Positions 20,581-37,744 of a stretch of 64,000 nt of DNA are shown here, in pieces. The stretch comes from Candidatus Kaiserbacteria bacterium (GTDB lineage Bacteria; Patescibacteriota; Minisyncoccia; Phycocordibacterales; Phycocordibacteraceae), in contig DAIDIW010000002.1 of the NCBI GenBank assembly GCA_027451665.1, forward strand, positions 146,766-210,765, read 5' to 3'. The notes beneath the pieces were generated by a model that was given only the letters and a program-made list of their open reading frames with translations, was not told where the DNA came from and made no database searches. How positions within the stretch are numbered: the stretch's first letter is position 1; each line of letters begins with the position of its first letter. Both the position numbers and the translations under genes were made by a program.

Positions 20581-21828
20581 TTACCGGTTCGGATTCGTTA
20601 CGGTGACCTTGATCGACGAAGGGTCTTGCGGGAAGGATGAGCGCCAGAAGGGGCGCAGAATGAGGACCGCTCGCTTCACCTCCGGATAGTTCGTAAGTGC
20701 CACCTCTGCGGCTGACCGGCTTTTCCCGGCCACTGCCGCTGCGATTCTGCCGGGGTCGACGGTATAGGTAAGATTCGCGGTGCCCGCCAGGGTGAATGCG
20801 AACTGGGAGGATGCGGGCGTCGGATAGCCCGAAATCGGGGTAAGGGTGAGTCCGCTCGTCGAGGAAAGCGTGAGCGGTTCGCCCTGGTAGCCGAGGCCGG
20901 TTATCGAGGTTGCAATGCTTTTCGCGAGCGCGGCTGACGGGAAAATAATAGCCGTCTCGGTCGCCTGCTCCTTCACATCAACCTGGCCAGTGGTGGCTGA
21001 TGGCGTCGGCGTTAGCTCATCGAACGTTGTAGTAGCAGCGCCCGAGAGAAGCACATACCCTGCAGGTATCTGACTTTGAATGCTGGACACGAGATCAGGC
21101 GCGAGCGCAGTCTTAAGCGAAGTTACGGCGGATTGCTCAGTCGCAGGCGCAACCGTTGGCACGGTCCCGCTTGCACCGCCAATCATGGGAGTCGCCGAAC
21201 GGGCGGTAATCTTCGTCGCGAGCGCGGTACCGTCGAGTCCCGGGACCGTGAACGAGGTGGGCCCAATGTTGTAGGAATCACCGGACTGGTCCGCTGTTAC
21301 CTCGACCTCGATGCTTCCGGGCGTAGATATCGAGCCGCCTGGCACGGTCACCGCCTTGCCGATGCGGAAGATGAGGCCGGACGGAGTCGCAAAACGCGTG
21401 TCTGTTACGAGCCGTTGGGCACGTAGCTCCGTGTTATAGATCGTTATTTGGCCCGTTGCCTTGCTATTTACCTGCTTAGTGCCCGAACCTTGCACGCTCT
21501 GCGTCGCGATCTTCTGAACGGTGAGTATTTCGAACGGAAGATCGCCCGTGCTCTTATCAGCCGTGAAGGAGTTCTGGACCGCCGTTGTTACGGTGCTTGG
21601 CGTTACCTGTACTTCCGCGCTTGAGAAATAGAAGAGGGCGCCGATGGACACGAATATGACGACAAAGATGCCGATAAGGGTCGCGTAGGGGAATCGTGGG
21701 GGCCGCGGGGTAAGGCGGAGCGGCTCGCGAGAGATACCGGGCGACTGCGGGGCCTGCAAGTCGGTCACTGGAGCAGGCTCCATCTCCTTGCGGCGAGACG
21801 GCGGGATTATGTCATCGAGTTTGCGCAT
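20581..21828 (-). CDS. hypothetical bitopic membrane protein (N-in, 1 TM, large Thr/Ser/Ala-rich extracytoplasmic domain)
   Basis: 415 aa; cytoplasmic Pro/Arg-rich N-terminus, TM LIGIFVVIFVSIGALFYF, then beta-rich low-complexity domain. Topology like PilN/FtsQ-type partners of actin-like ATPases. Confidence 0.45.
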   Translation of the reverse strand: MRKLDDIIPPSRRKEMEPAPVTDLQAPQSPGISREPLRLTPRPPRFPYATLIGIFVVIFVSIGALFYFSSAEVQVTPSTVTTAVQNSFTADKSTGDLPFEILTVQKIATQSVQGSGTKQVNSKATGQITIYNTELRAQRLVTDTRFATPSGLIFRIGKAVTVPGGSISTPGSIEVEVTADQSGDSYNIGPTSFTVPGLDGTALATKITARSATPMIGGASGTVPTVAPATEQSAVTSLKTALAPDLVSSIQSQIPAGYVLLSGAATTTFDELTPTPSATTGQVDVKEQATETAIIFPSAALAKSIATSITGLGYQGEPLTLSSTSGLTLTPISGYPTPASSQFAFTLAGTANLTYTVDPGRIAAAVAGKSRSAAEVALTNYPEVKRAVLILRPFWRSSFPQDPSSIKVTVTNPNR

Positions 21829-21887: not shown

Positions 21888-22925
21888 CTACTCATCATGA
21901 CCGTGTTCCTTCCAGTAAAGCGTCATGAGTTGCATCACGATATCCGGCTCCACTTCGGCGCCCTGCTTCATCGGCGGCAACTGCTTCATCCGGATAGGAA
22001 CGAGTTTCGGAGGGTCATCAGTAAGCCACATTTTTCCAAGATCTGCCCCTTCGAGCGCGCGTTGTACCGGCTCAAGATGATCGTCATCCGCGAGAATGAA
22101 GATGATGCGAGGCAAAGGATATCGCGTGGCGAATTCGCCGAATGCGTTTACTACCTCGCCAATCCATTCGGGCGAGCCGGCTTCCCCGTCTGGCAGCTCT
22201 TTTACTGCGACCAAAAGTCCCTTCCGAATAAGCGAAATGGCGATTTCAGGGCCGCTCGCGTCAAGCAAGAACGCGTTACGCTCGTGCGGGAATACGCTGC
22301 GTACGGCTTGATAGCGCAGTGAGCTCCCCGCGATTGTCGGTATACGCTCCGTGTGGAACAACGAGCGTAATACCCCGGCTATTGCGCGCGCTACAGCCTC
22401 ATCGATGAAGGATACGAGCATGATGACCTGCGCACGCATGACCTGTTTTCCGAACGGCTCATGCGTCTCATAACCGTTGAGCGTGGTACCGACGATGCTT
22501 TCATCGACAAGCAGTTTGCCCTTGGGCGTCACCGCTGCTTTCCGTATAGCAGCGTCAAGCATCCTGCGGGTGAATGTGAAAGGCTTTTTATCCTCAAATT
22601 TTTCGTAACGCAGCATGGTCGACTGCCAGGGGGCGCTTATGGAGACAAGAAGCGCTTCTGCCCTGCCGGATCCGGTAAGACGCGCAAGCGCTGGGGCGCC
22701 ATCGCGTACGAGCGTGTCGCAGAGCTCCTTAAGCGTGCGCGTCATGGCACTCACGTCGTCCTCGTGCTCCTTTGGCTCGATGCTCAGACGACGCGCATAG
22801 GCGATCGTCGCCTGCGCATCCGGAGTAAAGTGCGCATATGCCCCCGCAACGGAGCCGGCGCCTATGTCTAGGAGCAGTATTGACTCCGCTTCAGGCTTGT
22901 TGAAGAGGCGCGCGAAAAATCCCAT
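21888..22925 (-). CDS. actin/Hsp70-fold ATPase, FtsA/PilM-like
   Basis: N-terminal phosphate-1 motif ILLLDIGAGSVAGAYA; later DASGPEIAISLI (phosphate-2-like). Start at ATG 22925 (MGFFARLF). Confidence 0.5.
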   Translation of the reverse strand: MGFFARLFNKPEAESILLLDIGAGSVAGAYAHFTPDAQATIAYARRLSIEPKEHEDDVSAMTRTLKELCDTLVRDGAPALARLTGSGRAEALLVSISAPWQSTMLRYEKFEDKKPFTFTRRMLDAAIRKAAVTPKGKLLVDESIVGTTLNGYETHEPFGKQVMRAQVIMLVSFIDEAVARAIAGVLRSLFHTERIPTIAGSSLRYQAVRSVFPHERNAFLLDASGPEIAISLIRKGLLVAVKELPDGEAGSPEWIGEVVNAFGEFATRYPLPRIIFILADDDHLEPVQRALEGADLGKMWLTDDPPKLVPIRMKQLPPMKQGAEVEPDIVMQLMTLYWKEHGHDE

Positions 22926-22985
22926 GTGGTGACAGTATACGGCATGCGTTTCGCAGAACCGTACACAAGGAGGATAAAATAACAC

Positions 22986-28463: not shown

Positions 28464-28984
28464 CGTGTCGTGAAGTAAGCGATGACCGGTTGGCCCGTAT
28501 CGAAATCAACGTAAACGCTATCTGTCGAGAGATCGAAGGTATTACTGCCTCCGTCCCGATAGAGCTCAATAGCGTATGTGCCGCCTGGAACCGTTGCGCG
28601 CAAAAGCGGGACCGTAAAATCTGTTCGAGGACCGCCAGCGTGCGCGGCGCCAAGTACGTTTCCGAGCGCGTCGTCATCGACTTCGCGGACGGCAACCCAG
28701 ACGCCAGGAGGCGGGATGGTAACTGAAGCAACAGTCACAGTATTACCTGCCGGTTGATCGGTAACCGATACGACACCGCTCGGTGTGCTTACAAGCGGGC
28801 TCGAAGACGCGGCCGGAGCCTGTGCTGCCGCATTAGGAGGAGTCGCCGGCGTCGCGTAAAACCAAGCGGTAAGAAGCAGCGCGCCGAGGATGAGGCCCCC
28901 GACAAAGGATGTGAGTGAGAACTCTCGCATCGTCATACGCACATACCTTAACACATCAGCGCTCGAGAGCCGGAACTCCCTCAT
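28460..28984 (-). CDS. hypothetical membrane-anchored extracytoplasmic protein
   Basis: TM FVGGLILGALLLTAWFYA followed by a beta-rich domain; 4-nt overlap with the downstream nuclease gene. Confidence 0.4.
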   Translation of the reverse strand: MREFRLSSADVLRYVRMTMREFSLTSFVGGLILGALLLTAWFYATPATPPNAAAQAPAASSSPLVSTPSGVVSVTDQPAGNTVTVASVTIPPPGVWVAVREVDDDALGNVLGAAHAGGPRTDFTVPLLRATVPGGTYAIELYRDGGSNTFDLSTDSVYVDFDTGQPVIAYFTTR

Positions 28985-29825
28985 GAGGCATAGCGAGCAG
29001 CCCTTCGGCCTCGGCGAGCAGCTCGCCTACCCCCTCGGGTGCCAAGTGGAGAGGATCGAGCAACGTGCGGTCCGCGACGATCTGGTCTACTGCCACGACA
29101 CGAGCATCAATGAGTAGCCGTTTTTCGGCTCTCGAGAGGCTGGTGAGCGCGGTGATTGGGTAGACGCGGGCGCGGTACATGCGCGTAAGGAGGCAGTCCT
29201 GCCGCGGATAGCTCCAGCCTAGGAGCTCAACGCCTGCACACTCGGCGTATGCGATCGCCTCGCTCGTGAATTTAGTGTTCGTCACAAGAAGGCCGCGATC
29301 GATGGGGCAGGTACGTTCGGCGGGATCACAGGCGAAGATGTCATCGAACCGGCTCTTCACATAGAGCGCAACCTTGAGATCTGTTTTGTAGCCCGGATCG
29401 TTGTGATACTTGAGCTCGGCCGCCAGATATTCCCCGCGTCCCGGATGCGACGCATAGAAGTCGGTCTCATGCGTCACGCACTTGCCCCTTATGAGTTTTC
29501 GTGTCTCGACCGTCCAACCTTCAGCTGCGAAAAGATGCGAGACGAAGTCCTCGAACGGATGTCCGGAGGGCCCGAATTCCAGCATCGCGCGACGAAGCGC
29601 ATAGCGCGCCGCTACGGGGCGGCCTTCCTTGCGCAAGAGCGAAAAAGCGCGTGCATAGACTTCTTTCGAAGTGGTGCCCGCAACGATCGTCGAGCGAATC
29701 TGCTCCGAAATATCCTCCGCGGCGCGTGTCGCTGCGCCGGCACGGCGCAGCGACGACACGAGACGCTCCGGATCGAATGCCTCGGTCGTCCCGTCTGCCT
29801 TGATGATGGGAGGAAGCGCGCTCAT
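28956..29825 (-). CDS. ATP-cone domain fused to restriction-endonuclease-like (Mrr-cat type) domain
   Basis: N-terminal IIKADGTTEAFDPERL ... matches the ATP-cone consensus (VIKRDGxxExFdxxKI) of NrdR/NrdA. Central FEDFVSHLFAAEGW...D...GID-like region resembles the Mrr N-terminal catalytic fold. ATGA overlap with the upstream gene. Confidence 0.5.
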   Translation of the reverse strand: MSALPPIIKADGTTEAFDPERLVSSLRRAGAATRAAEDISEQIRSTIVAGTTSKEVYARAFSLLRKEGRPVAARYALRRAMLEFGPSGHPFEDFVSHLFAAEGWTVETRKLIRGKCVTHETDFYASHPGRGEYLAAELKYHNDPGYKTDLKVALYVKSRFDDIFACDPAERTCPIDRGLLVTNTKFTSEAIAYAECAGVELLGWSYPRQDCLLTRMYRARVYPITALTSLSRAEKRLLIDARVVAVDQIVADRTLLDPLHLAPEGVGELLAEAEGLLAMPHEGVPALER

Positions 29826-30272: not shown

Positions 30273-31268
30273 TCACGAAAGAATCGCGCCGCCCACGAGC
30301 GCGTTGTCCGCGTCATAAAAAACGATGGACTGGCCGGGTGCGTATGGCTCCGACAGGAGTTCATGAGGAATGAAGTGCGAAGTCTCGACGATTCCTCGTA
30401 TGCGCGGCCCTCGGTAGCGCAGTTGCGCCGCTACGGCGCGGTCCGGATCCTGTATCCAATTTTCATAATCGTAGGAGAGCGGCGCAATCGGTTGTGGATT
30501 TCGTTCGTGCGCGACGACGAGACGATTCTGCGTCATATCCTTCGCGCGGACAAACCACGGACCTGGCTGCTTGGTATCGAAAAGCGCGATGCGTTCGCCG
30601 AGCGTGTAGAGAACAGCACCTTCGTGGCGGCCGATCCGTATCCCTTCGGTATCGTATGCGTCGCCCGGGTCCGGATGAAAGGTCTGCCGAAGGAATTCGT
30701 CCACTGAAATATCGCCGAGGAAGCAAACCCCTTGCGAGTCGGGTTTCTCGGCTATGGGTAAGCCATATGCGCGTGCAAGTGCGCGCACCTCTTCCTTTGT
30801 CTTTCCCTTGAGCGGGAACATGAGCGCCTTCCACGTCGTCTTTGGTATGGCCCAGAGGAAATAACGCTGATCCTTTTCGCCATCAAGATAATGGCCTGTC
30901 GCGAGGTAATCGGCGCCATGTTCCTGCGCGAATGCGTAAAGCACGCCGAATTTTACCTCGCGATTGCACATCACGTCAGGATTCGGCGTACGTCCGGCTC
31001 CGTATTCCTTGATAAGGTAGTCGATCACGGCGCGCTTATAGGCTTCGCGCGCGTCGAGTGTCATGAACGGAAGCTGGAGGCGCGCTGCCACGCGCATCGC
31101 GTCGCGGCGATCTTCCGCCCAAGTACAAGGCATGCCGGGGGGGTACCACCCCTTTACGAATACCGCATACACGTCAGCGCCGGCTTCCTTAATGAGCGCT
31201 GCGCTCACAGCCGAATCCACGCCGCCTGAGAGCCCTACGAACACGCGCTTTCCGCGGAGGTCCTGCAT
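30273..31268 (-). CDS. mnmA: tRNA-specific 2-thiouridylase MnmA
   Basis: VFVGLSGGVDSAVSAALIKEAGADVYAVFVKGWY (PP-loop SGGxDS), catalytic Cys context, 331 aa. Confidence 0.85.
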   Translation of the reverse strand: MQDLRGKRVFVGLSGGVDSAVSAALIKEAGADVYAVFVKGWYPPGMPCTWAEDRRDAMRVAARLQLPFMTLDAREAYKRAVIDYLIKEYGAGRTPNPDVMCNREVKFGVLYAFAQEHGADYLATGHYLDGEKDQRYFLWAIPKTTWKALMFPLKGKTKEEVRALARAYGLPIAEKPDSQGVCFLGDISVDEFLRQTFHPDPGDAYDTEGIRIGRHEGAVLYTLGERIALFDTKQPGPWFVRAKDMTQNRLVVAHERNPQPIAPLSYDYENWIQDPDRAVAAQLRYRGPRIRGIVETSHFIPHELLSEPYAPGQSIVFYDADNALVGGAILS

Positions 31269-31308: not shown

Positions 31309-32316
31309 CTATGAGTGGAGATAGAGCCGCTGATTCGCAAGCTGCTCGGGATACGTCCTCGCATAATGCATGAGGCCGTCCGTCCCGGTGAGATAATAGA
31401 GATCATCAGTCTTGGCAGGCTCAGCGGCCGCAGTAAGTGAATCGAGCCCCGGATTATCGATCGGGCCGGGCGGGAGTCCCCTGTGGAGGTAGGTATTGTA
31501 AGGGGAGTCGACCCCGAGATCTACAAGCGAAGGCGCGTAGGTGCTTCGATTGAAGATGAAACCGAAGACGGCATCAACCTGAAGCGGCATGCCATCATTG
31601 ATACGATTCCACAAGATACCGGACACCATCCGCCGAGAATCGGGCGTACGCGCCTCCTTCTCTATAAGCGATGCCATGATCACTATTTGGGAAAGAGTGT
31701 GTCCGGACGCGTGAATCGCCGACAAAAGTGACGCAATCTTAGCATTAAAGTTATCATGCATAGTCTTGACGATGGTTTGAGCGGTTGCATCCGGCGGAAA
31801 AAGATACGTGTCTGGGAAGAGATAACCTTCGTCTGGACCGGCGACCGTAATAAAATCAGATACCGATATCCCCGGATACGCGGCCGCAACCTTCGCCGCC
31901 ATATCACGCACGGTCTCGCCTTCTGCAAAGGTTATGCGAGTCGGCGGGATACCGAAGATTCCCGCACCGAGGCGCGACGCGACGCGAAACATGTCCTCGG
32001 GATACGTGAGGCGGTAAGGGCCGGGGTGAATGTGCGCACTCGCCCCTGTAAACCGTAAGAGATATCGGAACGCAAGCGCTGAGCGCACGACGTGATCTCG
32101 CGCGAGCACCTGCGCCACCTCCTCAGCCGAAGCGCCTTGAGGAATTGTGACTAACGAGTCGCGCGGATACCCTGCAGGAGGCGAAGCGAGAAGCCAGTAC
32201 GCGAAAGCAACCACGAGGACAAAGGCGCACACGATTGCCCAGATCGCGCGGTAGCGGATGAAATGGGCGCTTAAGCTCGACCGCGCAGCGGCGATGATGC
32301 GTGAAAGGTAGCCCAT
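31309..32316 (-). CDS. mltG: endolytic murein transglycosylase MltG (YceG family)
   Basis: N-terminal TM, YceG-like domain with GYLFPDTYLFP and IVIMASLIEKEA; 335 aa. Confidence 0.8.
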   Translation of the reverse strand: MGYLSRIIAAARSSLSAHFIRYRAIWAIVCAFVLVVAFAYWLLASPPAGYPRDSLVTIPQGASAEEVAQVLARDHVVRSALAFRYLLRFTGASAHIHPGPYRLTYPEDMFRVASRLGAGIFGIPPTRITFAEGETVRDMAAKVAAAYPGISVSDFITVAGPDEGYLFPDTYLFPPDATAQTIVKTMHDNFNAKIASLLSAIHASGHTLSQIVIMASLIEKEARTPDSRRMVSGILWNRINDGMPLQVDAVFGFIFNRSTYAPSLVDLGVDSPYNTYLHRGLPPGPIDNPGLDSLTAAAEPAKTDDLYYLTGTDGLMHYARTYPEQLANQRLYLHS

Positions 32317-32319
32317 GCG

Positions 32320-33690
32320 CTAGGTGGGCAGATTTGCCGGTGCCTCGCTTGTTGAAGACTCGATCCGCGTGAGGCTTGGGGTTGCGACTGCAGCAGAAGG
32401 TATATGGAAGATCGTCGCGAGCTCCTCGGTGCTCATCACCATGGGGTCCGGCATCTTGAACGGGTCATGGAAATACTGACGACGGCGATACGCTTCGACA
32501 AGCTCGCGGCGAAAGACGTCCTTACGCTTCTCGTTGCCTATTTCCCAGGGATAATCGCTGAACATGATGCCGAAGTGGGCTGCCTTGAATCCGTTCCGGT
32601 CCTCCGCGTTGAACGGTTTCCAAAGCGAAATCATTCCCGTGATATTGACCGGATCGAAGGCATCAGGTTCTGCAACATAAACGCCTCGGATACCGACATC
32701 GAACGCAAGTTTTGAGACGTTGCGTTCTATTGCCGCGATCTTCTCGCTCTGCCCCTTCGTCGGGTTTGGGAATCCTTCAGTCTCGCGCATCTCTCCGCTA
32801 AATACGTCGCGATACGCAAAAGTACGGACCGTCTCCTTCCGGATATCATCGACGAGTTCGAGAGCCTTATCGCGCCAGGTATACGGTTTGCCGTCAGGCT
32901 TCATTTTCCCGTACTTCTCCCCTGCATGGATGCGGAAGATAATCTGGAGCCAGAAGTTCTCGCCCGGCCCCATCGAGCCGAGAAATTCGGTCAAGTGGGC
33001 AAACGGGTCAACCTGTTCGTTCTCCTTTTGTGTCTTATCAAGCCCGTAATCAACATAGGTCTTGATGGGTATGGGGTCGTTCTTATCCGTATGTTTGAAG
33101 TCGCAACCCCAGACGCCGTATTCCTCGGGTTTCGCGCTTATAAACCGCGTGTAATCCTCCACCTCGACGAGCTGCACACCGGGGTATTGGGCATAGAATG
33201 CATTCTCGACGAGCTTCCTAAAGTTCTCGCGCGTCCAGATATAGAAGTGCACTTGTCCACCGAACGAGACGAGCTCGATCGACCAATAGGGACGGACCTG
33301 TCCCTGAATATACTTTTGATACCAGTTACTTTCCCCTTTCGTGTAGTGAATCGCGGAGAATACCGCCTCCATCGCAAGCGGCGTTTTCGCCAGATTGCGT
33401 GGCGGACGAATTTCAAGCAGTACTACCTTTTGCTTCGCGATGAACTCGGACCGGGCAAGCAGAAGCCAGGTATGCCACGAGGCGTCAAGAATGACGGCAG
33501 GGAGCCACAGTGGCGAGAGAAAAAGCGCAAGCTCGATGCCGTGGACGGTGGCGTACGGGAAGAAAACGTAAAAGGTGAAGATTCCAACGAGGCCGCCAAT
33601 GAAAGGCGGCCAGGAGAATGGTCGCACGCCCGCTTTATCGCGCGATTTGTCGACGAGTTCCTCGAGCTCTTCAAAAAACGGTAGGTGCAT
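32320..33690 (-). CDS. conserved hypothetical protein, 456 aa, N-terminal two TM helices plus large cytoplasmic domain
   Basis: No recognisable catalytic motif. Features: FIGGLVGIFTFYVFFPY / LALFLSPLWLPAVIL TM pair, then VVLLEIRPPRN...PLAMEAVFSAIHY and a Trp/Tyr-rich globular region. Confidence 0.5.
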   Translation of the reverse strand: MHLPFFEELEELVDKSRDKAGVRPFSWPPFIGGLVGIFTFYVFFPYATVHGIELALFLSPLWLPAVILDASWHTWLLLARSEFIAKQKVVLLEIRPPRNLAKTPLAMEAVFSAIHYTKGESNWYQKYIQGQVRPYWSIELVSFGGQVHFYIWTRENFRKLVENAFYAQYPGVQLVEVEDYTRFISAKPEEYGVWGCDFKHTDKNDPIPIKTYVDYGLDKTQKENEQVDPFAHLTEFLGSMGPGENFWLQIIFRIHAGEKYGKMKPDGKPYTWRDKALELVDDIRKETVRTFAYRDVFSGEMRETEGFPNPTKGQSEKIAAIERNVSKLAFDVGIRGVYVAEPDAFDPVNITGMISLWKPFNAEDRNGFKAAHFGIMFSDYPWEIGNEKRKDVFRRELVEAYRRRQYFHDPFKMPDPMVMSTEELATIFHIPSAAVATPSLTRIESSTSEAPANLPT

Positions 33691-33762
33691 GGTTGCGTTG
33701 CACCTAGTGTAGCAGAAACGCGCACCGCTTGAGACAAAGCAGCCCGCGTTCGTGTGAATTGA

Positions 33763-34833
33763 TTACGCTACGGTGTACGTGCCGTCCTTCGTGCGCTTGA
33801 AATGCTTCGGGTCATTCAGATTAACGAGGATGGTATTGTCTTTCACGATACGCGCTTTCTTCACGCGCTTCACAATGTCTTCCTTCGTGAGAGGGCCGGA
33901 TTCCTCAAGGACCTCGCGGATGACATCGCGTACGACGCCTGGCTTATAGCCCCATTCGGTGAGCGCATAGAGACCACGACCGACAAGCACGAAACGCGGA
34001 TCCTTGATGAGCTCGTTGTGCGTGGTGGCGACATGCGCTTTCTTAGAGAAGGTCGTCGTGATTGTCTTTGCTACATCCGCAAAGTGCATGGGCTCGCCTT
34101 TTCGCTTAATCGTAAGATACGCGTAATCCCGTATCCCCTTCGTACGTATGGCCGGCGCTGATACGCGGCCCCATTCGGACAGCGGATTCCTGCCGAGCTT
34201 TTTCGAAAGCGAGAGCCACCGCTTCAATACTTCCTCGTCGCGGTAGGCGTCATTCACGTTCTTAAGCTCATCGAGGAAGCGGTCGAGAAGTTCCGATTCC
34301 GGAACGATCTCGTCATCTTTGAGCGACCCGTAGAGTGCGGTCAGGGCTTCATGGATTTTCTTCGCGGTTGCAGCATCGATATGCCAGCGCGCGAGGAACT
34401 CATCAGTCTCGCGTTCGCGATAAAACGCTGAACCGAGCATGAGGAGAAAACGGAACCGGTTACGGCCCTTCTCATCGGTCGCGAGCGATTCCAACAGCTC
34501 TTCCTCTGACACCATGGCGCCGAGTTGGTCGATATGATCGGCAAGCTCCTCAAACGCGCCGGACGCATCCTTGAATGCAACACTTGCGCGGATCGATTCG
34601 AGGCCTGCGGCCTCGATCTGACGCACGCGTTCACGTGTGATGCCTGACCGATCGCCGATCGCCTCGAGCGTCTCGCGCTTCGTATTCGCTCCTAGCCCGA
34701 AGCGGCGCACGAGCACGTCGCGCGGACGTTCTGCGGCAGCCGCAAGAAGTTTCTTCACGACGGCTACGCTGTCAAACGTGAAGGTGGTCCTGCTTCGACC
34801 CGGCGTCAGCTTCGTCTTGTTTTTCATAGGCAT
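33763..34833 (-). CDS. DNA-binding protein with sigma-70 region-4-like HTH and C-terminal HARE-HTH-like domain
   Basis: DVLVRRFGLG...ETLEAIGDRSGITRERVRQIEAAGLESIR is a sigma-70 r4 / LuxR-like HTH. C-terminal VLVGRGLYALTEWGY matches the G-R-G-x-Y-x-L-x-E-W hallmark of HARE-HTH. Start at ATG 34833 (MPMKNKTK). Confidence 0.55.
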   Translation of the reverse strand: MPMKNKTKLTPGRSRTTFTFDSVAVVKKLLAAAAERPRDVLVRRFGLGANTKRETLEAIGDRSGITRERVRQIEAAGLESIRASVAFKDASGAFEELADHIDQLGAMVSEEELLESLATDEKGRNRFRFLLMLGSAFYRERETDEFLARWHIDAATAKKIHEALTALYGSLKDDEIVPESELLDRFLDELKNVNDAYRDEEVLKRWLSLSKKLGRNPLSEWGRVSAPAIRTKGIRDYAYLTIKRKGEPMHFADVAKTITTTFSKKAHVATTHNELIKDPRFVLVGRGLYALTEWGYKPGVVRDVIREVLEESGPLTKEDIVKRVKKARIVKDNTILVNLNDPKHFKRTKDGTYTVA

Positions 34834-34879
34834 GTGGTCTAGTTTATAGCAAATGTTTCGAGAATCGTCAATTTTGTGG

Positions 34880-37744
34880 TCAAACGACGATATTAAGAAT
34901 ACGTCCCGGTACGTACACGGTTCTGTGCGTGCCGGCCGCAAGCGCTTCCGCAACTGCCGGGATAGCGCGTGCGGCCGCGCACGCTTCCTCTTCCGTAGCG
35001 TCCGGGGCAAGCGTGACCTCTCCGCGGCGTTTTCCATTCACCTGGACGGCGAGGGTAATGACACGGTCCACAAGAAGCTCCGGCGCGTAGCGAGGCCATG
35101 CGTTCGCGTGCACGGATCCCTCCCCTCCAAGCGAAGCCCAGAGCCGTTCAGTGATGTGCGGAGCGAACGGCGCAAGAAGCTGTACATAGGCGCGCATGCT
35201 CTGCTTCGAGAGCGTTTGTTCTCGTTCAAGCTCATTGAGCAGTGCCATGAGCGTTGCGACGGCGGTATTCAGCTTGAATCGATCTCCGTCCTCCGCGATC
35301 TTCACGCTCGCGCGCGCAAGCCCGCGTTCTTCCCCCTCTGTAGGCGCCGCATCGCTCGCGCGCGCCGCCTGGCGGATAACGCGTTCGATGAATCGGCGCA
35401 TGGAAGGAACGCCGTCGAGGTGCCAAGGATAGCTGCCCGGCTCGTTATACGGGCCGATGAACGCCAGATAGATGCGTACCGCATCAGCTCCATACTCTTC
35501 CACCACCTCATCGGGATTGATGACGTTTCCCTTCGACTTGCTCATTTTCTGACCGTCAGGACCCATGATGAGTCCCCGATTGAATCGCTCCTCGAAGGGC
35601 TCCTCGACCGGTACGAGCGCAAGGTCGTGCAATGCTTTGATGAAGAAGCGGGCGTACAGCAGATGCATCGTGGTGTGCTCGCTGCCGCCTGAGTAACGAT
35701 CCACGGGGAGCCATCTCTTCATGCGCCTCCCGTCTGAGAAATCGTTTGCATCCTTCGGATCAAGATATCGCAAGAAGTACCATGAAGAATCAACGAACGT
35801 ATCCAAGGTGTCGTATTCCGGCGTCCATCCCGCTCCAAAGATTCGTGTGACCCGTTCGCGCAATTCCTCCGAGGATGCAAGCGGTGATTTACCAGTCGGT
35901 TTGAAATCGACATCGGTCGGTAGCAGCCACGGCAAATGCTCCGCTGGAATCGCGTGCGGCTTCCCCTCGGGGTCATAGACAATAGGGATCGGGCAGCCCC
36001 AGTAGCGTTGTCGAGAGACGAGCCAGTCACGCAGACGGTAATTCGTGGTGCGTTCGCCGCCCGCGTACTCGATAATGTCAGAGAACGCCTCGCGATTGTC
36101 TCTGCCGTCGAACGTGCCGGAATTAATGAGGTAGCCGTCGCCCGTAAGCGCGATTTCTTCGTGCAAGAGCTGCCACATCTGCTTTTGATGCGCCGGCGTA
36201 AGCCGTCCAAGCATCTCATGCTCCTCAATCCAGGAGAGCGTATGCTTCTTCGCTTCATCATCCGGAATCTTTCCCTTGCCTTCGAGCGAATCGATCTCGG
36301 CGAGGAGCGCATACGTATGCGCGCAGCGATTCTCTCCCTTGTGTGAGGCGCAGTAACGCGCGGCTGTTATGAATGGCACCCGCTTGGTGATGTGCGCGCC
36401 CACAAGTGCGGCTTCCTCGCTGATCTCCCTCACGGCTGCTTCTTCCGGTGTCTCCCCAGCGTCGATACCGCCCATAATGGCCGTCGCGATCCCTTCGAGC
36501 GGGCCATGCCAATCGAGAATGGCGAACTTGCCGGTCGAGCGATCCCTAAGATGCACCACTACCGTATCGCGCTTCACCTCCTCAAACTCAGGGCGCGGCG
36601 GGTTCGATACGTCATCGGCGCACGGGACAACTACCTGCCGAATCGCTAGCCCATGCTTCTTCGCGAACTCGAAGTCGCGCTCGTCATGCGCTGGGACCGC
36701 CATGACCGCTCCGGTGCCGTAGGAGCCGAGCACGTAGTCGGCAACATAGATGGGGATCGGTTCGTTCGTCGCCGGATTGATCGCTCTCACACCCTTGAGC
36801 TCCACCCCTGTCTTTTCCTTATTTTCACTTCGTTCACGCTCTGTTTTCCGCTTAGTGGCCTCTAGATAGCCGCGCACTTCATTGGCATTCTCAATTCGCC
36901 GCGCATCCTCGGTGGCCAGCTGGGTTACGAGAGAATGTTCCGGCGCAAGCACAAGGTAGGTAGCGCCGAAGATGGTGTCCGGCCTCGTCGTGAATACATC
37001 GACCACGTGCACTGCCTCCGAGGCGGAGGCCGCGTCACTAATGTCAAATCGCATGCGAGCGCCCTCGCTCTTCCCGATCCACGCTCGCTGCGCATCCTTG
37101 ATATCTTCGCGCCACGGCAGGCGTTCGAGCCCACTCAGGAGCCGGTCCGCATATTTCGTGATCTTGAGGAACCATTGGGTGAGCGTCCTTTCTTCCACTT
37201 CCGTGCCACAGCGCTCGCATCGGCCATCTATCACCTGTTCGTTCGCAAGCACCGTCTGGTCCTTTGGACACCATTTCACCGGCGCAGCTCGCCTCTCCGC
37301 AAGCCCGTGCTCGAAGAGTTTCGTAAACAACCACTGGGTCCATTGGTAATACGAAGGATCGCACGCGATTACCTCCTTCGACCAATCAAACGACGCGCCC
37401 ATGCTCTCGAGCTGCACGCGCATACGTTCGATATTCTGGTAGGTCCATTCTTTAGGATCAATGCCATTCTTGATAGCGGCGTTCTCGGCAGGGAGCCCGA
37501 ATGCATCGAACCCGATAGGAAAGAGGACGTTTTTACCGCGCGCACGCAGCATCCGCGCATAGATATCGGTTAGCGCGAACGCGTACCAATGGCCAATGTG
37601 GAGGTCTCCTGACGGATACGGGAATTCAACGAGGAGATAGTACGGGTCCGCATCGCTCGCGAGATCTGTCTCGTACAGATTAAGCTCCTTCCACATTGCC
37701 TGCGCTTCAGCCTCGACTTCGCGATGGTTGTACGTCCCTCCCAT
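34880..37744 (-). CDS. leuS: leucyl-tRNA synthetase
   Basis: HIGH: PYPSGDLHIGHWYAFALTDIYARM; KMSKS: QKMSKSKGN; CP1 editing domain present. 954 aa, longer than typical bacterial LeuRS because of insertions. Confidence 0.9.
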   Translation of the reverse strand: MGGTYNHREVEAEAQAMWKELNLYETDLASDADPYYLLVEFPYPSGDLHIGHWYAFALTDIYARMLRARGKNVLFPIGFDAFGLPAENAAIKNGIDPKEWTYQNIERMRVQLESMGASFDWSKEVIACDPSYYQWTQWLFTKLFEHGLAERRAAPVKWCPKDQTVLANEQVIDGRCERCGTEVEERTLTQWFLKITKYADRLLSGLERLPWREDIKDAQRAWIGKSEGARMRFDISDAASASEAVHVVDVFTTRPDTIFGATYLVLAPEHSLVTQLATEDARRIENANEVRGYLEATKRKTERERSENKEKTGVELKGVRAINPATNEPIPIYVADYVLGSYGTGAVMAVPAHDERDFEFAKKHGLAIRQVVVPCADDVSNPPRPEFEEVKRDTVVVHLRDRSTGKFAILDWHGPLEGIATAIMGGIDAGETPEEAAVREISEEAALVGAHITKRVPFITAARYCASHKGENRCAHTYALLAEIDSLEGKGKIPDDEAKKHTLSWIEEHEMLGRLTPAHQKQMWQLLHEEIALTGDGYLINSGTFDGRDNREAFSDIIEYAGGERTTNYRLRDWLVSRQRYWGCPIPIVYDPEGKPHAIPAEHLPWLLPTDVDFKPTGKSPLASSEELRERVTRIFGAGWTPEYDTLDTFVDSSWYFLRYLDPKDANDFSDGRRMKRWLPVDRYSGGSEHTTMHLLYARFFIKALHDLALVPVEEPFEERFNRGLIMGPDGQKMSKSKGNVINPDEVVEEYGADAVRIYLAFIGPYNEPGSYPWHLDGVPSMRRFIERVIRQAARASDAAPTEGEERGLARASVKIAEDGDRFKLNTAVATLMALLNELEREQTLSKQSMRAYVQLLAPFAPHITERLWASLGGEGSVHANAWPRYAPELLVDRVITLAVQVNGKRRGEVTLAPDATEEEACAAARAIPAVAEALAAGTHRTVYVPGRILNIVV

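Follow-up and report, generated by a model that had tools for sequence, protein, structure and literature searches.

What joins a gene for a membrane protein to a gene for a DNA-binding protein, when both lie in the midst of housekeeping genes, is the question raised by positions 32320-34833 of a 64-kb stretch of DNA from a Candidatus Kaiserbacteria bacterium (henceforth the window, meaning the entire stretch analysed). Two genes are found here, both on the minus strand, and the peptides quoted for them by a first-pass annotation, which was made from the letters alone, are present in their open reading frames (ORFs). The gene at 33763..34833 encodes a multi-helix-turn-helix (HTH) protein of 356 aa plus a stop, for which the NCBI name is "sigma factor-like helix-turn-helix DNA-binding protein" (hereafter the HTH protein), and that at 32320..33690 encodes a 456-aa stand-alone membrane protein of the DUF8128 family. 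Both ORFs are far above chance, with more than 4000 database homologues of the 456-aa protein and about 8000 of the HTH protein, which confirms that they are real genes. The first-pass annotation had the HTH gene following the 456-aa gene, but in the direction of transcription it precedes it, the order being ychF, a small membrane protein, leuS, the HTH gene, the 456-aa gene, mltG, and mnmA. As an answer, we propose a constitutively expressed core module in which the DUF8128 protein acts as a non-catalytic membrane scaffold. We give this combined statement a probability of about one half, and we are far surer of those parts of it that concern the identity of the proteins than of the scaffold role.

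The 456-aa protein had been described as a lineage-specific hypothetical protein, a label that no longer fits. PF26449 (DUF8128) is recorded in the precomputed annotation of an identical protein (P0001) and of nearly all of the 120 listed homologues, and the family shares homology with the N-terminal domain found in VirD4/TraD-like ATPases from Patescibacteria (the first ~350 of ~780 residues) and phage G, as detailed below. Local Pfam, NCBIfam, and PADLOC scans of the protein were empty, the Pfam blank being an artefact of a local copy that lacks PF26449. Likewise, sequence searches of the PDB with either the protein or the family profile gave only noise, the protein matched nothing in the phage collection, and DUF8128 is mentioned in no paper of the literature searched. 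Its more than 4000 matches are about 450 aa long, and the family forms 1564 clusters at 50% identity (E <1e-3), of which the best 150 representatives are almost all ~400-470 aa with a few shorter fragments. At least 576 relatives are found among the GTDB species-representative genomes, nearly all of them labelled as Patescibacteria-type metagenome-assembled genomes (MAGs).

The first clue to a wider relationship was a weak PHROG match covering positions 18-131 of an 824-residue profile. In a viral-contig ORF, the segment ...SEELATIYHFP...APAPAQIPTEGLYLG... leads directly into a GKTGTGKS P-loop domain of the DUF87/FtsK/TrwB-like type; protein-database fragments pair PF26449 with DUF87/TrwB_AAD_bind, and one long-read contig carries DUF8128, DUF87/TrwB_AAD_bind, and TraG-D_C pieces in series. 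A search made with the fused junction yielded only short fragments, because uncorrected frameshifts in long reads have left the fused DUF8128-ATPases in the protein database as pieces of <250 aa. Three long-read contigs in the ENA (L085-L087) have their genes split into many short ORFs, those for tRNA synthetases and gyrase included. Clean full-length fused ORFs came from a metagenome scan, which recovered 59 ORFs that are complete (772-820 aa) and combine one transmembrane (TM) helix with DUF8128 and an ATPase domain. Their DUF8128 part matches the hidden Markov model of the stand-alone proteins (E 1e-44 to 1e-50, positions 40-438), and in tblastn comparisons the 456-aa protein of the window is 24-28% identical to them over residues 90-456. 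Their ATPase half matches TrwB_AAD_bind, TraG-D_C, DUF87, conju_CD1115, and SXT_TraD and is nearest to the VirD4/TraD-type coupling proteins, the match to VirB4 being weaker. The same two-part arrangement is seen in gp156 of the jumbo Bacillus phage G (825 aa; phrog_5156), which aligns with the DUF8128 profile over residues 42-318 (hhalign probability 97.4, E 1e-11); homology to DUF8128 covers its N-terminal ~320 residues, and a DUF87/TraG-D_C ATPase makes up its C-terminal half. The record of gp156 is annotated 'ATP-binding/permease; MsbA-like', and in the phage genome (NC_023719 87741-96175) it is adjoined by gp155, a TraG/VirB4-like P-loop protein.

An alignment of the stand-alone and fused forms at the junction places the end of the 456-aa protein (...TPSLTRIESSTSEAPANLPT-stop) 2-3 residues short of the GLxLG that opens the fused ATPase domain. 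Its tail aligns with the motif TPhIxWLxAKxAPAPxxIP, which in the fused proteins stands immediately before GLxLG...GKTGTGKS. Common to the two forms, and to gp156, are the homologous cytoplasmic domain (residues ~90-456), a membrane anchor at the N-terminus, the EELATIFHxP...AP..(I/L)P linker, and a gene context of the housekeeping type and not that of a type IV secretion system (T4SS). In contrast to the fused ATPases of ~780 aa, the 456-aa protein lacks the P-loop half (DUF87/TrwB_AAD_bind/TraG-D_C) and carries two TM helices to their one. The former ATPase linker is its C-terminal tail (32323..32394, minus strand), with the motif ...TP.L.RI.S...EAP.NLP. Despite the predicted disorder of this tail (pLDDT, the per-residue model confidence, <50), a diverse alignment shows invariant (P451, P455) and near-invariant (N453, L454) positions in it; several acidic and basic residues elsewhere in the protein (E108, E139, D179, R335, R404) are invariant as well. 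No Walker A motif or P-loop is present in the 456-aa ORF, in agreement with the first-pass observation that it has no recognizable catalytic motif. Homology to a characterized enzyme family does exist, namely that of the ATPases, but it extends only to the non-catalytic half.

The membrane topology had been correctly read as a TM hairpin followed by a large cytoplasmic domain. The hairpin (residues ~27-72; 33475..33612, minus strand) is supported by hydrophobic windows at residues 31-70 and by helices at 27-43 and 45-86 in an AlphaFold2 model. The model, built with 42 homologues (pLDDT 79; predicted template modelling score 0.77), consists of the helical hairpin, an alpha/beta domain that constitutes the DUF8128 core (residues ~88-432; 32395..33429, minus strand), and the disordered tail. 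This large domain can be placed in the cytoplasm because a cluster of basic residues follows the second TM helix, in agreement with its position ahead of a cytoplasmic ATPase in the fused relatives. The richness in aromatic residues noted for the protein is also borne out (W 2.6%, Y 4.4%, F 7.5%). On the other hand, it had been suggested to be a sensor; a loop of only a few residues connects its two hydrophobic helices (residues ~31-70), and hence there is no extracytoplasmic domain and a sensor role is unlikely.

In Foldseek searches with the model of the 456-aa protein, the top 14 matches are all TrwK/VirB4 chains, and RecA/FtsK-type ATPases are entirely missing from the matches. Given this, together with the lack of a P-loop in the protein, the match is to the N-terminal domain of VirB4. 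The fold of the model is thus shared with the N-terminal domain of TrwK, the VirB4 of plasmid R388, at 6-10% identity and with no profile-level signal, and the protein of the window has neither the ATPase domain nor the T4SS neighbours of TrwK. In hhalign comparisons with the DUF8128 profile, R388 TrwK and pSK41 TrsD gave probabilities of 0.5% and 0.6%, respectively, and pSK41 TrsE was not significant, all three being single-sequence templates of low sensitivity. A much weaker likeness is seen to EccE of the ESX/type VII secretion systems, which belong to another phylum and whose genes are not found here. The VirB4 N-terminal domains and the stand-alone TrsD are parts of membrane assemblies and not enzymes (PMC12102498). 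The TrsD/TraD proteins of pGO1/pSK41 (mating-pair-formation class MPF-FATA) follow the same principle, in that a protein akin to the N-terminal part of a VirB4-type ATPase is made separately. However, TrsD is ~227 aa long and encoded directly upstream of its ATPase, whereas the 456-aa gene is unassociated with virB4: neither the 64-kb window nor the 7-kb surroundings of the gene in 80 other loci contain a gene for a VirB4/VirD4-type P-loop ATPase. With respect to the type IV coupling proteins (T4CPs; VirD4/TraD/TrwB), the P-loop and the all-alpha domain are absent from the 456-aa protein and present in its fused relatives.

A survey of T4SS genes in Patescibacteria counted 5,713 VirD4-like "T4CP" homologues, mostly far from virB4 and possibly exapted, and found no VirB3-VirB4 fusions (PMC12102498). 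The fused DUF8128-ATPases very probably belong among these homologues, and, if the fold assignment made from the model holds, they would have a VirB4-like two-domain plan. Their gene neighbourhoods differ from that of the stand-alone gene, which is flanked by the HTH gene and mltG; neither of these is among the neighbours of the fused genes. Instead, the fused genes (loci L091-L170) recurrently adjoin an upstream gene for a protein of ~110 aa (41 loci), a Xer-type tyrosine recombinase (32 loci), DivIC/FtsB (25 loci), and NrdR/ribonucleotide reductase. The ~110-aa protein ends in a hydrophobic/amphipathic helix, ...ITWFAxFWLRxIKKAxxFGW. These neighbours could hint at a DNA translocase related to division or segregation.

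For the HTH protein, the first-pass annotation had proposed a sigma-70 region 4 and a HARE-HTH domain in an unusual combination. The domains themselves are recovered by Pfam above the cut-offs, but their combination is the norm, being the standard architecture across a family of ~8000 clusters at 90% identity. The sigma-70 region 4 (4.2-type HTH; residues 35-82; 34588..34731, minus strand) matches PF04545 with E 3.5e-10 and 39.7 bits against a cut-off of 24.1. Its top PDB sequence matches are region 4 of RpoS/RpoD, and in Foldseek it is 39-46% identical to domain 4 structures of sigma-A/sigma-S. It retains the recognition helix ITRERVRQIE, the equivalent residues of which in sigma-70 presumably contact and read the -35 element. 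The HARE-HTH, an RNA polymerase (RNAP)-delta-like winged helix (residues 236-294; 33952..34128, minus strand), matches PF05066 at 243-294 with E 1.3e-7 and 32.3 bits against a cut-off of 25.9. Its diagnostic motif stands up to proper alignment, GRGLYALTEW aligning with GENLWGLRDW of the RNAP delta subunit (8x6g_E), the top PDB sequence match. The delta subunit of B. subtilis (2m4k) was matched to the HARE part by Foldseek with a probability of 0.98, the model of the HTH protein being of low confidence there. This model has a pLDDT of 66 and rests on a shallow alignment, and only its confident ends were used; the middle third is helical and poorly modelled. The C-terminus (residues 300-356; 33766..33936, minus strand) is a folded, basic domain of three helices and a beta hairpin (pLDDT 79-92), for which a small winged-helix-like fold is suggested by the model and Pfam returned just weak DUF3320/DUF2161 matches.

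Despite these relationships, the HTH protein departs from both of its named relatives. The HARE part matches the N-terminal domain of RNAP delta (RpoE of Bacillota) and the N-terminal HTH matches region 4.2, but the acidic, disordered C-terminal tail of delta and sigma regions 1-3 are absent. Further, unlike in delta or sigma, both modules are combined in one 356-aa protein with a helical middle and a C-terminal winged helix, and scores against the equivalog models lie far under the cut-offs: this is so for the NCBIfam sigma-family models, and TIGR04567 (RNAP_delt_lowGC) scores 29.2 bits against a cut-off of 42. As sigma region 2 is missing, with the NCBIfam sigma models and PDB sigma structures aligning only with residues ~17-91, the protein is not a sigma factor. 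Most likely, judging from its sequence, it binds DNA and/or RNA polymerase, and an association with RNAP is plausible by analogy, as both identifiable modules bind RNAP in sigma and delta. In the phage collection it matched only sigma region 4 proteins, and no link between HARE-HTH and the candidate phyla radiation (CPR) emerged from the literature searched. An alternative reading of its ORF as 424 aa (to 35037) was rejected; it overlaps leuS, and the homologues start near 34833. The identical NCBI protein (P0121) is 354 aa. The HTH protein is 72-84% identical to its best 120 homologues and is the more conserved of the pair, both in close relatives (72-84% versus 56-82% for the DUF8128 protein) and in distant genomes (46-57% versus 32-45%).

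The genomic context binds these two genes to a third, mltG (YceG; 31309..32316, minus strand; Pfam YceG, E 1e-70), which follows the 456-aa gene. Neighbours were counted in 80 species-level genomes, the stand-alone DUF8128 genes of which are 36-60% identical, and the order HTH-DUF8128-mltG is preserved in about 97% of the species-level genomes examined. The HTH gene lies on the same strand within 3 kb upstream of the DUF8128 gene in 56/57 loci and directly adjoins it in 56/65, and mltG lies within 400 nt downstream in 67/69. The other genes of the array are less constant: leuS (34880-37744, minus strand, 5' of the HTH gene in the window) directly precedes the HTH gene in 41/57 loci, mnmA (30273-31268, minus strand, the last gene of the array, 3' of mltG) directly follows mltG in 40/64, and ychF is found anywhere within 7 kb upstream in 32/49. 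In a representative with only 32% DUF8128 identity, the HTH gene (46% identical at the protein level) and YceG still flank, and in another at 33% identity YceG is kept and the HTH gene is not. The gap between the HTH and DUF8128 genes has a median of 68 nt (72 nt in the window), with insertions of 0.6-2 kb in eight loci. That between DUF8128 and mltG has a median of 4 nt, is at most 20 nt in 63/75 loci, and is 3 nt in the window.

Upstream of the HTH gene, a promoter can be read from the sequence on the minus strand. It comprises a -35-like hexamer, TTGACG (34866..34871), and a -10-like hexamer, TATAAA (34843..34848), which is preceded by TGC as in an extended -10 and lies 9 nt before the ATG at 34833. 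A generic promoter/terminator scan of the window missed it, as its -10 hexamer ends in A. The motif TTGACx-17-TGnTAnAAx recurs upstream of the HTH gene in 57/67 related loci and is far less common before other genes of the array (ychF 1/21, leuS 4/47, DUF8128 1/31, mltG 1/64, mnmA 13/57). Apart from the -35 and extended -10 elements, this region shows no operator-like conservation. The preserved synteny, the short gaps, and the presence of the motif before the HTH gene but only rarely before DUF8128 or mltG together define a conserved three-gene transcription unit. On this sequence evidence, HTH-DUF8128-mltG forms one operon driven by a strong, housekeeping-type (sigma-A-type, extended -10) promoter.

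The module that we propose would work as follows. The HTH and DUF8128 genes are single-copy core genes of Paceibacteria (Patescibacteria/CPR) that share an operon with mltG. The HTH protein, with its sigma-70 region 4.2, helical middle, delta-like HARE-HTH, and small C-terminal winged helix, cannot be an initiation factor for want of sigma region 2 and most likely binds DNA and/or RNAP. The cytoplasmic DUF8128 domain is paralogous to the N-terminal domain that the 'T4CP-like' (VirD4/TraD-like) ATPases of Patescibacteria carry, and the protein stops at the linker to the ATPase and is thus motor-less. It would have no catalytic role but act as a scaffold or adaptor at the cytoplasmic face of the membrane, with partners docking via the surface of the DUF8128 domain and the invariant C-terminal linker peptide, and translational coupling would ensure that it and MltG are produced in fixed proportion. 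Of all this, the analysis shows the domain identities, the homology, the truncation point, the topology, the operon structure, and the spread among genomes; the scaffold role is inferred from the VirB4 N-domains, TrsD, and EccE, each of which is part of a membrane assembly, and any physical link of the DUF8128 protein to MltG or to the HTH protein is likewise putative.

Several points weigh against this proposal. The likeness to VirB4 depends on a predicted model with no support at the sequence level. The loci examined all come from one class, in which gene order is generally conserved; the unrelated leuS and mnmA are often adjacent too, and therefore synteny alone is weak evidence of shared function. 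Furthermore, the invariant residues E108, E139, D179, R335, and R404 may mark an unrecognized active site rather than interfaces, and a partner ATPase may be encoded elsewhere in the genome, beyond the window.

The competing explanation that fares best, though we consider it unlikely, is that the genes share a transcription unit and nothing else, the HTH protein being a general RNAP-associated or nucleoid factor (a delta/sigma-4 hybrid) of a lineage poor in transcription factors and the DUF8128 protein having an envelope function with MltG. The much stronger conservation of the HTH protein in both close and distant relatives is in keeping with a core role of the transcription type, the DUF8128 gene is linked to mltG more tightly than that to the HTH gene in terms of both the median gap and the insertions, and two loci (L172, L083) retain mltG without the HTH gene. 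Against this, the HTH gene is steadier in its place upstream of DUF8128 than leuS, mnmA, or ychF are in theirs, and a promoter-like element between the HTH and DUF8128 genes was not found.

Quite unlikely, in our estimate, is a split motor or T4SS accessory, in which the detached N-terminal half would work in trans with an ATPase encoded elsewhere (for example, that of a T4SS near dnaA or a T4CP-like one) and MltG would be a VirB1-type wall opener. This would accommodate the VirB4-N-domain fold of the protein, its end exactly at the linker, and the invariance of its tail, as expected if an ATPase domain still docked there. TrsD is a precedent for a separate protein like the N-terminal domain of VirB4, being the most abundant T4SS component in Patescibacteria (PMC12102498); in pSK41, trsD directly precedes a DUF87 ATPase, and a lytic transglycosylase is usual in T4SS operons such as that of R388. 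However, the absence of a VirB4/VirD4-type P-loop gene from the window and from the flanks of the 80 loci tells against such a partner, TrsD homologues mostly adjoin virB4, unlike the DUF8128 gene (PMC12102498), no sequence likeness to TrsD was detected, and MltG is a near-universal housekeeping enzyme, this being the sole YceG gene seen in the window. Similarly unlikely is a sequestration pair of regulator and membrane receptor, which is as near as the first-pass proposal comes to a workable form, with the DUF8128 protein holding the sigma-4/HARE protein at the membrane in anti-sigma fashion and freeing it on a signal: a co-transcribed protein with a sigma-like domain followed by a membrane protein with a cytoplasmic domain does resemble sigma/anti-sigma operons, and the two genes do stay together in nearly all loci, but the DUF8128 protein has no extracytoplasmic domain for signal reception, the fused ATPases contain the homologous domain without an HTH neighbour, sigma region 2 is missing from the HTH protein, which hence offers no sigma factor to restrain, and the promoter of its gene is of a strong, constitutive type with no operator-like conservation beyond the core elements.

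Going beyond the non-catalytic scaffold that we favour, one may speculate, as a long shot, that the motor-less VirB4/T4CP-type N-terminal half is a membrane receptor that, via its invariant C-terminal peptide or the surface of its domain, places the sigma-4/delta-like protein, as a binder of promoters and RNAP, beside MltG and so couples transcription or nucleoid placement to wall remodelling in cells without most of the classical regulators. The sigma-4.2 helix of the HTH protein, in which the residues that read the -35 element are kept, may also compete with sigma-A at TTGAC boxes, including that of its own conserved promoter.

The surroundings of the locus agree with its first description as a housekeeping context between mltG and leuS. 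Besides ychF, leuS, mltG, and mnmA, the window holds other aminoacyl-tRNA synthetase genes, DnaK/DnaJ, uvrABC, and ATP synthase, with one copy each of the DUF8128 and HTH families. The window ORFs submitted to Pfam/NCBIfam fell into housekeeping families or none, with no match to a T4SS component, and the related loci have the same context. The nearest relatives of both proteins are from MAGs named Kaiserbacteria, Paceibacterota, and Minisyncoccota. A mobile-element or defence-island interpretation was rejected on the basis of a GC content of the two-gene stretch similar to that of its flanks, the lack of defence matches, and the conserved housekeeping synteny; among the PADLOC defence models, none matched the 456-aa protein and the HTH protein had only a weak region-4 match to MzaA. 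Elsewhere in the window, leuS has a NUDIX hydrolase domain inserted after the editing domain (36182-36502, minus strand; residues 415-521; Pfam E 7.9e-10), an insertion likewise annotated in the leuS homologues of three related loci (L001-L003). In a 289-aa protein (28956-29825, minus strand), an ATP-cone at the N-terminus is joined to a weakly matched restriction-endonuclease-like domain of the Mrr type, and a 289-aa gene with a faint Mrr_cat match occupies the equivalent position in the same three loci. Two adjacent ORFs of 415 and 365 aa (20581-21828 and 21888-22985, minus strand) have no Pfam match at E 0.01 or better.

Both protein families were already catalogued, one as a Pfam DUF and the other under an NCBI product name, and the domain types are known. 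Relative to the literature searched, three points are new: DUF8128 is connected with the VirB4 N-domain fold, a motor-less stand-alone branch is recognized, and HTH, DUF8128, and mltG are seen to form a conserved operon with a promoter of its own. Patescibacteria account for much of bacterial diversity, and their core cell biology is poorly understood. The presence of this operon in hundreds of species-level genomes, its strong conservation, and its strong promoter indicate that it probably serves a basic function. As an ATPase-less paralogue, the 456-aa protein would give the abundant "T4CP-like" proteins of these organisms a VirB4-like two-domain architecture, and the stand-alone DUF8128 proteins would provide a natural "N-domain only" variant with which the binding partners of the domain may be probed. 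Both proteins are tractable for heterologous interaction and DNA-binding assays, and the sigma-4/delta-like protein emerges as a candidate for a general factor of transcription or of the nucleoid in this regulator-poor lineage.

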